A DNA stretch of 64,000 nucleotides from Escherichia coli (GTDB lineage Bacteria; Pseudomonadota; Gammaproteobacteria; Enterobacterales; Enterobacteriaceae), in assembly GCF_001677475.2 (NCBI RefSeq), contig NZ_CP015229.1. One strand, written 5' to 3'. The notes beneath the pieces are model-generated. The model was not told the origin of the DNA and did no database searches. It worked only from the letters and a program-made list of their open reading frames with translations. The first letter of the stretch is position 1. Each line of letters starts with the position of its first letter. The translations under genes and the position numbers were made by a program. Positions 14,977 to 17,316 of the stretch are shown piece after piece.

Positions 14977-15212
14977 TGGCTTCACTTATTCAGGTGCGCG
15001 ATTTGCTGGCGTTACGGGGCCGTATGGAAGCGGCCCAGATAAGCCAGACATTGAACACTCCGCAGCCAATGATTAACGCCATGCTGCAACAGCTGGAAAG
15101 CATGGGCAAAGCCGTGCGGATTCAGGAAGAACCTGACGGCTGCCTCTCTGGCAGTTGTAAAAGCTGTCCGGAAGGCAAAGTCTGTCTGCGCGAGTGGTGG
15201 GCGCTGCGTTAA
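14976..15212 (+). CDS. feoC: FeoC (YhgG), small winged-helix protein with Cys cluster
   Basis: Track ORF 14967..15212; start [11 protein letters not shown] overlapping the feoB stop; CxxGxCKxCPxGxxC motif. Confidence 0.9.
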
Positions 15213-15234
15213 CCATACTCCATCGCCTGTTTTG

Positions 15235-15269
15235 AAAAGCCCGGTATGCGTTTGCATCCGGGCTTTTTT
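15235..15269 (+). terminator. Rho-independent terminator after feoC
   Basis: AAAAGCCCGG ... CCGGGCTTTT inverted repeat followed by T-run. Confidence 0.7.
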
Positions 15270-15414
15270 GCGTGCAGATTTCCATAAAAATGCAACTCTT
15301 GCAGCACGGCGTAAGTTCCTCTGAAAGCGTCTCGCAGGGATGAAAACTGGCTAATGCACAGGTGTGGAGTGGCGCGTAGAGTCGCGGCATTCAAATAACA
15401 GGTGAAGGAACGCC

Positions 15415-16308
15415 ATGAGCAAAAAGCAGAGTTCCACCCCACACGATGCGCTGTTCAAACTCTTTTTACGCCAACCGGAGACGGCACGCGATTTTCTTGC
15501 GTTTCATTTACCGGCACCCATTCACGCGCTCTGTGATATGAAAACCCTCAAGCTGGAGTCGAGCAGCTTTATTGATGACGATCTGCGTGAAAGCTATTCC
15601 GACGTGCTGTGGTCGGTGAAAACGGAACAAGGACCAGGATATATCTATTGTCTGATTGAACATCAAAGCACCTCAAACAAACTGATCGCATTTCGCATGA
15701 TGCGTTACGCCATTGCCGCAATGCAAAATCACCTTGATGCCGGATACAAAACGTTGCCGATGGTGGTGCCATTGTTGTTTTACCACGGTATTGAAAGCCC
15801 CTATCCCTATTCGCTGTGTTGGCTGGATTGTTTTGCCGATCCCAACCTGGCAAGGCAGCTTTATGCCTCTGCATTTCCGCTGATTGATGTCACCGTCATG
15901 CCTGATGATGAAATCATGCAGCACCGACGCATGGCGCTGCTGGAGTTAATTCAAAAACATATCCGTCAACGCGATCTGATGGGGCTGGTAGAGCAAATGG
16001 CCTGCTTATTAAGTAGTGGATACGCTAATGACAGACAAATCAAAGGGCTGTTTAATTACATCTTGCAAACCGGCGATGCGGTACGTTTTAACGATTTTAT
16101 CGACGGCGTTGCCGAACGTTCACCGAAACACAAGGAGAGTTTAATGACTATTGCGGAAAGATTGCGGCAGGAAGGGTTTCAGAAAGGTATACGTACCAAC
16201 GCCCTAAATATTGCCAAAACCATGCTGGATGCCGGAGTCTCTCTTGAGGACGTTCTGCGATTTACCAGCCTGACGGTTGAAGACCTTGCTGAAATAAATC
16301 ATCAATAA
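15415..16308 (+). CDS. rpnA: RpnA (YhgA), Rpn-family PD-(D/E)XK recombination-promoting nuclease
   Basis: 297-aa ORF; family recognised from sequence and position between feoC and bioH. Confidence 0.88.
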
Positions 16309-16325
16309 CGTAAAGGATGGTTTTA

Positions 16326-16499
16326 ATGACAGATGCAGAAAGAGAATATCTTATTAGTTACCTGATTGGTTATTTATTGGGTCGACGCCTGGAAGCCCTG
16401 GATATCGCCAAAAGAATGCTGTAATCCTGAGTCCCTCTTGCGGACATCATGCGTTTTACCGGGGTGTCAGAAGAAGAGTTGGCTGCGGCGAGTCAGTAA
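16326..16499 (+). pseudogene. Degenerate duplicate of the Rpn C-terminal tail: intact 32-codon ORF with its own Shine-Dalgarno, then stop and frame change
   Basis: ATG 16326 preceded by AAGGA (16313-16317) encodes MTDAEREYLISYLIGYLLGRRLEALDIAKRML-stop; the next frame encodes VPLADIMRFTGVSEEELAAASQ-stop; together these parallel the last ~54 aa of RpnA ([12 protein letters not shown]...[34 protein letters not shown]). Confidence 0.5.
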
Positions 16500-16527
16500 A
16501 GTTCTGTCTCGCCATTTCAAAAGCTGT

Positions 16528-17316
<789 letters not shown>

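Follow-up and report, generated by a model that had tools for sequence, protein, structure and literature searches.

Introduction

Small proteins encoded within rpn nuclease genes were described by Zhong et al. (PNAS 2023, PMC10400941), who used chromosomal SPA tags to show that such RpnS proteins are made from every rpn gene. In Escherichia coli K-12, translation of RpnA-S from its internal site was supported by ribosome profiling with Onc112 or retapamulin and by detection of the tagged small protein, and the combined substitutions K240R, E241D, and M244L abolish it (PMC10400941). dRNA-seq data cited in the same paper place an internal transcription start in all rpn genes, which yields a shorter and more abundant transcript. 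Growth is inhibited by RpnA-L*, a form without the internal start, but not by the wild-type gene, and supplying RpnA-S in trans reduces the SOS response to RpnA but not that to RpnB (PMC10400941). Purified RpnA-S blocks both double- and single-strand DNA cleavage by RpnA-L*, and the RpnA-L/RpnA-S complex has a mass of about 74 kDa that fits two L and two S subunits and dissociates at pH 9–10 (PMC10400941). The crystal structure of RpnA-S (PDB 7TH0, 1.9 Å) shows two three-helix bundles that dimerize through the long first helix, and RpnA-L itself is undetected at native levels in K-12 (PMC10400941). For the nuclease part, mutagenesis has shown that D11, D63, E82, and Q84 are needed for activity, that R94 affects it, and that D165 in the PDDEI motif is a hyperactivating position (Kingston et al. 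2017, PMC5350276).

The small proteins vary among strains in 4-residue units located in helix 1, from 8–20 residues after the initiating Met, and for RpnC this repeat variation sets which S neutralizes which L (PMC10400941). In the rpnE-ypaA (rpnE-Ss) and rpnC-Ss arrangements, a second S module with its own Shine-Dalgarno (SD) sequence and ATG lies directly downstream, and such rpnSs genes can disappear, either through deletion or because they become fused to the N-terminal coding region (PMC10400941). The authors also noted HHpred similarity of RpnS to motifs of the helix-turn-helix (HTH) type and mentioned DUF4351 for stand-alone RpnS proteins in some species (PMC10400941). Phage protection, against T2, T4, and T-even phages of the BASEL collection, was shown for the plasmid-borne RpnP2 only and not for RpnA (PMC10400941). 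Outside the family, the Cas10d/Cas11d pair of type I-D systems likewise uses one frame with an internal SD and ATG, so that a small C-terminal protein is produced alongside the full-length one (PMC10400941, introduction); however, the Cas10d/Cas11d products cooperate, whereas the short product of rpnA antagonizes the long one.

Here we examine the rpnA locus in a stretch of E. coli DNA of 64,000 nucleotides (hereafter the window) and compare its internal start, its tail, and its downstream neighbor with these described systems.

Results

The ORFs of the window run in the order feoB, feoC, and rpnA on the plus strand, followed by bioH on the opposite strand, and the feoC-rpnA-bioH order is also annotated in RefSeq E. 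coli genomes that match at 96%–99.5%, as it is in K-12. The translated ORF reaches 675 bits against the NCBIfam RpnA equivalog model NF007361 (cut-off 583), while the paralogue model NF007418 gives 424 bits and falls under its own cut-off of 583. Based on its position and these scores, the ORF at 15415–16308 (+) is E. coli rpnA, lying between feoC and bioH and predicted to encode the 297-aa RpnA-L, a PD-(D/E)XK DNA endonuclease and toxin. The Transposase_31/YhgA-like nuclease domain (Pfam PF04754, E = 2.8e-91) occupies residues 8–209 (15436–16041, +) and covers model positions 1–202 of 203. The N-terminal 243 residues are identical to the K-12-type protein at 241/243 positions, and D11, D63, E82, Q84, R94, and PDDEI (D165) all stand where they do in the K-12 type; the nuclease encoded in the window thus looks intact. 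No PADLOC v2 model matches the rpnA of the window.

Just 3' of feoC, a GC-rich hairpin with a T run behind it (AAAGCCCGG...CCGGGCTTTTTT) was observed at 15234–15307 (+), and this is probably the feoABC terminator. An Rfam search of 15000–16700 returned sub-threshold matches only and no known RNA element at the internal start; the match of the feoC-side hairpin to RF02424 (26.8 bits vs a gathering score of 70) is almost certainly meaningless.

Inside rpnA, the SD sequence AAGGAG at 16132–16137 (+) coincides with two rpnA codons, AAG for Lys-240 and GAG for Glu-241, and it precedes an ATG at 16144–16146 (+) that is in frame with rpnA, since (16144-15415)/3 = 243 makes it codon 244 (M244). From this ATG, 54 codons lead to the rpnA stop TAA at 16306–16308. 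A sequence-only reading of the window had already pointed to this AAGGAG, to the in-frame ATG, and to a 54-aa product equal to the RpnA C-terminus, all of which we could read directly from the sequence as to coordinates, frame, length, and peptide. Its spacer of 6–7 nt narrows to 6 nt (AGTTTA), and the value of 7 can be discarded.

The bare motif is not above chance in number, as the 64-kb window contains 4 copies of AAGGAG-N4-9-ATG vs 2.07 expected, and 16/100 shuffled sequences contain at least 4. Its position is another matter. The other three matches head long ORFs of 133, 540, and 431 codons, with 5–26 open codons upstream, whereas the rpnA match is the only one in the 64-kb window that lies deep inside an ORF (246 open codons upstream). 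When pairing with the 16S anti-SD was calculated for the 213 in-frame positions between codon 21 and a point 30 nt upstream of the internal ATG, the internal site was the best of the 213 in that upstream part of rpnA, at -8.5 kcal/mol. The SD is identified here by its sequence, by this best pairing, and by the K-12 mutants. In view of its position within the ORF, its conservation in homologues, and the published mutagenesis, we rejected a chance motif, and the internal SD and ATG read together as more than a coincidence of letters.

A standard sigma-70 scan of 15200–16600 found no consensus site, and in a relaxed scan with -10 positions from 15850 to 16134 the best candidate had 8/12 matches and lay far from the internal start. 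The published internal promoter was thus not placed by sequence in these scans, and because no sigma-70 consensus was found upstream of the start, that promoter rests on the cited dRNA-seq. On the opposite strand across 16131–16308, the only ORF comprises 33 codons (16204–16305) and is without support.

The start is conserved well beyond the K-12 type. Between -63 and +28 relative to the ATG, the window and the K-12-type genome do not differ at any base, and K-12 has the same SD and ATG codons (K240, E241, and M244). Across 11/11 aligned Rpn proteins, the Met is invariant. We fetched nine divergent plasmid-borne Rpn genes of about 28%–53% identity, from Serratia, Klebsiella, Salmonella, Aliivibrio, Pantoea, E. 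coli (two genes), Vibrio vulnificus, and Leptospira (~28%). In the protein alignment, all nine have Met at the position of M244 inside an MT(I/V/L/T)A(E/Q) motif, and in the DNA of each homologue a GGAG or GAGG stands 7–9 nt upstream of the aligned ATG, with GGGG in one Klebsiella copy. A functional internal start predicts that an SD-like element and an ATG are kept at the nucleotide level despite divergence; the residues encoded under the SD of these homologues vary (KE, GD, EG, ED, and EE). Homologues of ~47%–53% identity share the MT(I/V/L)A(E/Q) start and the upstream GGAG/GAGG with rpnA, and the internal start of the homologous plasmid nuclease system RpnP2-LS lies at the aligned Met. The internal start falls where the conserved domain gives way to the variable tail.

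The product, rpnA-S (16144–16308, +), is a 54-aa protein equal to the C-terminus of RpnA-L. It matches PDB 7TH0 in phmmer (E = 4.2e-11), and its AlphaFold2 model (pLDDT 85.9) predicts a three-helix bundle with helices at residues 3–29, 34–41, and 45–52, the same fold as in K-12. The top PDB match of the model in Foldseek is 7TH0, 'E. coli RpnA-S' (probability 1.00, TM 0.66/0.76, 59% identity), and below it come weaker matches to HTH proteins of the TrpR-like and ArsR-like kinds. Precomputed annotation assigns PF27070 (HTH_Rpn_C) to an RpnA with the identical 54-aa tail and to the 57-aa downstream protein described below. A Pfam-A scan of the full RpnA and of the intact Escherichia ruysiae small protein detected neither PF14261 (DUF4351) nor PF27070, with a library that is probably older than PF27070.

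The tail differs from that of K-12, which comprises 49 aa vs 54 aa in the window and shares ~59% identity with it over the aligned part. Compared with K-12, the tail of the window has four extra residues after Gln-13 (K-12 EQ----SKALHIAK), so that helix 1 carries extra 4-residue units, and it has a different C-terminal end. Strains JNE112863 and Z1323HEC0475 have the window-type tail minus another 4 residues (TNAL; FQKGIRA----IAK), so that the S of the JNE112863 type comprises 50 aa. Allele alignments place the 4-residue insertions and deletions between alleles in an indel-variable stretch of helix 1 at 16177–16206 (+), and those separating the window, the K-12 type, and JNE112863/Z1323HEC0475 fall at S residues ~12–21. 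In the plasmid homologues, 0–7 extra 4-residue units (GIEK, GLQQ, GRQE, and similar) occur at the same place. As judged from these alignments, the indels of the window are the helix-1 repeat variation described in PMC10400941.

Directly downstream of rpnA, the window holds a second, decayed small gene at 16313–16499 (+), recognized from its sequence, from intact 57-aa relatives, and from PGAP annotation. It begins with AAGGA at 16313–16317 and an ATG at 16326, is interrupted by an in-frame TAA at 16422–16424 and a TGA at 16428–16430, and ends at its original stop at 16497–16499. The frame reads MTDAEREYLISYLIGYLLGRRLEALDIAKRML, TAA, Ser, TGA, and then VPLADIMRFTGVSEEELAAASQ. With the stops repaired it would encode a 57-aa protein, of which intact public versions (P0001–P0010) are 88%–96% identical. 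Escherichia ruysiae has such an intact 57-aa gene between rpnA and bioH, with CAA where the window has TAA, and its neighboring 297-aa rpnA has a tail identical to that of the window. Intact 57-aa versions were also seen at the same position in a few E. coli.

By sensitive blastn with the unique 5' part of the downstream module, the two-module arrangement was found in 853/5,426 complete E. coli genomes (about 16%), with E. coli 042 and F11 among them. It occurs once per genome and always at this locus in these 853 genomes, which rules out that the downstream module is a copy from another rpn paralogue. The TAA is present in all eight two-module sequences examined (the window and seven RefSeq strains), while the TGA of the window recurs in one other strain; in strain MEW, the ATG is gone and a further stop has arisen. 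PGAP annotates the downstream stretch of NZ_AP022207 as a pseudogene ('transposase, internal stop').

Within the decayed module, the part corresponding to helix 1 (16347–16382, +) contains three 12-nt units, TATCTTATTAGT, TACCTGATTGGT, and TATTTATTGGGT, which encode YLIS, YLIG, and YLLG and were read by eye from the translation. Tandem Repeats Finder reported nothing on 16100–16520, where the low number and the divergence of these 12-nt units keep them from scoring. The repeats are hydrophobic, whereas the units described for RpnS are charged or glycine-rich (PMC10400941). The pattern at the rpnA locus is otherwise that of rpnE-ypaA and rpnC-Ss, and we interpret the downstream copy as the decaying remnant of a stand-alone rpnA-Ss that would correspond to rpnC-Ss and rpnE-Ss (ypaA). 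Here the copy is a pseudogene downstream of rpnA; the main text of PMC10400941 makes no mention of one for rpnA, and K-12 is without the decayed copy that the window keeps.

The two modules also help to place the K-12 tail. When window 16144–16308 is compared with K-12-type 2345–2494, the first 33 nt of the K-12 tail are shared with the intragenic module of the window, whereas its last ~110 nt resemble the downstream module (~91% identity) much more closely than the intragenic one. This suggests that the K-12 tail is a fusion with the downstream module, the direction of change being inferred from an unrooted comparison. The allele of O145 strain RM9467-C1 switches from the intragenic to the K-12/downstream type at a different breakpoint. 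Mosaic tails of this kind suggest recombination between tandem antitoxin modules.

In O145 RM9467-C1 (NZ_CP031349), an AbrB/MazE-family antitoxin and a PemK/MazF-family toxin were additionally observed at 1419–2050 between rpnA and bioH. This toxin-antitoxin insertion sits at the spot of the decayed rpnA-Ss of the window.

Some alleles have lost much of the nuclease. In 811 of 5,425 matching E. coli records (about 15%), coverage of the rpnA locus stays below 80%. The two alleles of this kind that we examined, NZ_CM165890 and NZ_CP047710, carry internal deletions corresponding to approximately 15451–15695 and 15492–15928 of the window, which remove the PD-(D/E)XK core. In both, the AAGGAG and the ATG are retained together with an intact 49-aa S frame and at least 200 nt upstream, which counts in favor of the internal start; PGAP lists both as Rpn pseudogenes. 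It is possible that these nuclease-deleted alleles are orphan antitoxins.

Discussion

We consider it highly probable that translation of rpnA-S starts internally at the AAGGAG-N6-ATG of the window, and that this gene within a gene encodes a type II-like antitoxin of RpnA-L. For this allele, the signals, the frame, the identity of the gene, the K-12-identical start context, the conservation of the start, and the fold are established. Translation from the site, neutralization, and complex formation come solely from the literature, for the K-12 allele (PMC10400941). Because the start context agrees with the K-12 type at every base between -63 and +28, the published initiation result carries over directly, and by analogy with K-12 the 54-aa S of this allele would be expected to neutralize its own L.

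According to this mechanism, ribosomes would start at M244 and produce a three-helix protein of 54 aa with the same sequence as the RpnA-L tail, largely on the shorter, more abundant transcript that published dRNA-seq attributes to an internal promoter. The long first helix of RpnA-S would then pair with the same helix of RpnA-L to form an inactive 2:2 complex, and the PD-(D/E)XK endonuclease would be blocked. RpnA-S may thus be regarded as a protein antitoxin (type II-like) encoded inside its toxin, and the 4-residue indels of helix 1 would determine which S neutralizes which L. Since the codons are shared, antitoxin and toxin would co-evolve.

The site is the published start of RpnA-S, so the feature is already known in this gene. 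The sequence-only reading had pointed to reports of intragenic Rpn proteins that inhibit the full-length nuclease, and in this it was right: Zhong et al. (PMC10400941) described them and mutated the same codons. It had also called the arrangement an antiphage toxin-antitoxin system. The toxin-antitoxin half of this description agrees with K-12 RpnA, whereas the antiphage half was shown for RpnP2 and not for RpnA (PMC10400941). Phage protection is a feature of RpnP2-LS, and a contribution of the RpnA system of the window to phage defence may be supposed by analogy.

Two other explanations for the internal start were weighed. RpnA-S might be made, but have as its main job here that of an HTH DNA-binding regulator, for example in rpnA autoregulation, or of a stand-alone protein with another partner. 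The HHpred similarity to HTH motifs (PMC10400941), the name of the Pfam tail family (HTH_Rpn_C), and the weak TrpR-like and ArsR-like fold matches that come after 7TH0 are all compatible with a regulator, and so are the existence of stand-alone copies and the two nuclease-deleted alleles that keep the S frame, in a set where 811/5,425 records are without 80% locus coverage. However, purified K-12 RpnA-S blocks cleavage by RpnA-L and co-purifies with it, and its neutralization is specific to the cognate L (PMC10400941); moreover, a regulatory role would come on top of the antitoxin role and not in its place, as is the case for many type II antitoxins. We therefore find it very unlikely that regulation is the main job of the protein. 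It is scarcely credible that AAGGAG is a by-product of Lys-Glu coding or an SD-like pause site, with the ATG an ordinary Met and no separate protein, for although the bare motif is not enriched in the window and K240, E241, and M244 belong to a coding stretch that E. coli strains conserve in any case, ribosome profiling, the tagged small protein, and its loss on codon mutation were all obtained in an identical context (PMC10400941), and GGAG/GAGG and ATG persist in homologues while the encoded residues change.

With the internal start taken as that of an intragenic antitoxin, the two modules, the mosaic tails, and the deleted alleles can be combined into a joint reading, which we put at about an even chance of being correct. 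The rpnA locus would ancestrally have contained both an intragenic rpnA-S and a stand-alone rpnA-Ss. Both would remain intact in E. ruysiae and a few E. coli, with the second a decaying pseudogene in ~16% of E. coli. The K-12 tail (7TH0) would be a recombinant of the first 11 codons after the internal start and the downstream 3' part, and other alleles (O145) would be different mosaics, while ~15% of E. coli would have lost the nuclease core and kept the antitoxin frame as orphans. If this is true, cassette shuffling between tandem antitoxin modules, and not only slippage of 12-nt repeats, would be a main route by which Rpn specificity diversifies. The arrangements in the window, in E. ruysiae, and in K-12 would together document the exchange of Rpn antitoxin tails by recombination between tandem modules.

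The two-module reading would be an extension of known work; downstream copies have already been described for rpnC and rpnE (PMC10400941), and maybe for rpnA in the supplement of that paper. The 54-aa tail, the decayed rpnA-Ss, the mosaic tails, and the nuclease-deleted alleles that keep S are minor extensions of the published framework. A reading of raw sequence can thus recover a real gene within a gene, while knowledge of the mechanism, published in 2023, gains nothing from it.

Because PGAP lists only the full-length rpnA, the antitoxin is invisible in genome records. Another point about public records concerns NZ_CP134663.1, from an E. coli of a yellow-legged gull, which is filed under plasmids in PLSDB although at 4.9 Mb it is chromosome-sized. 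Its RpnA is 100% identical to that of the window, and the record contains five Rpn-like places.
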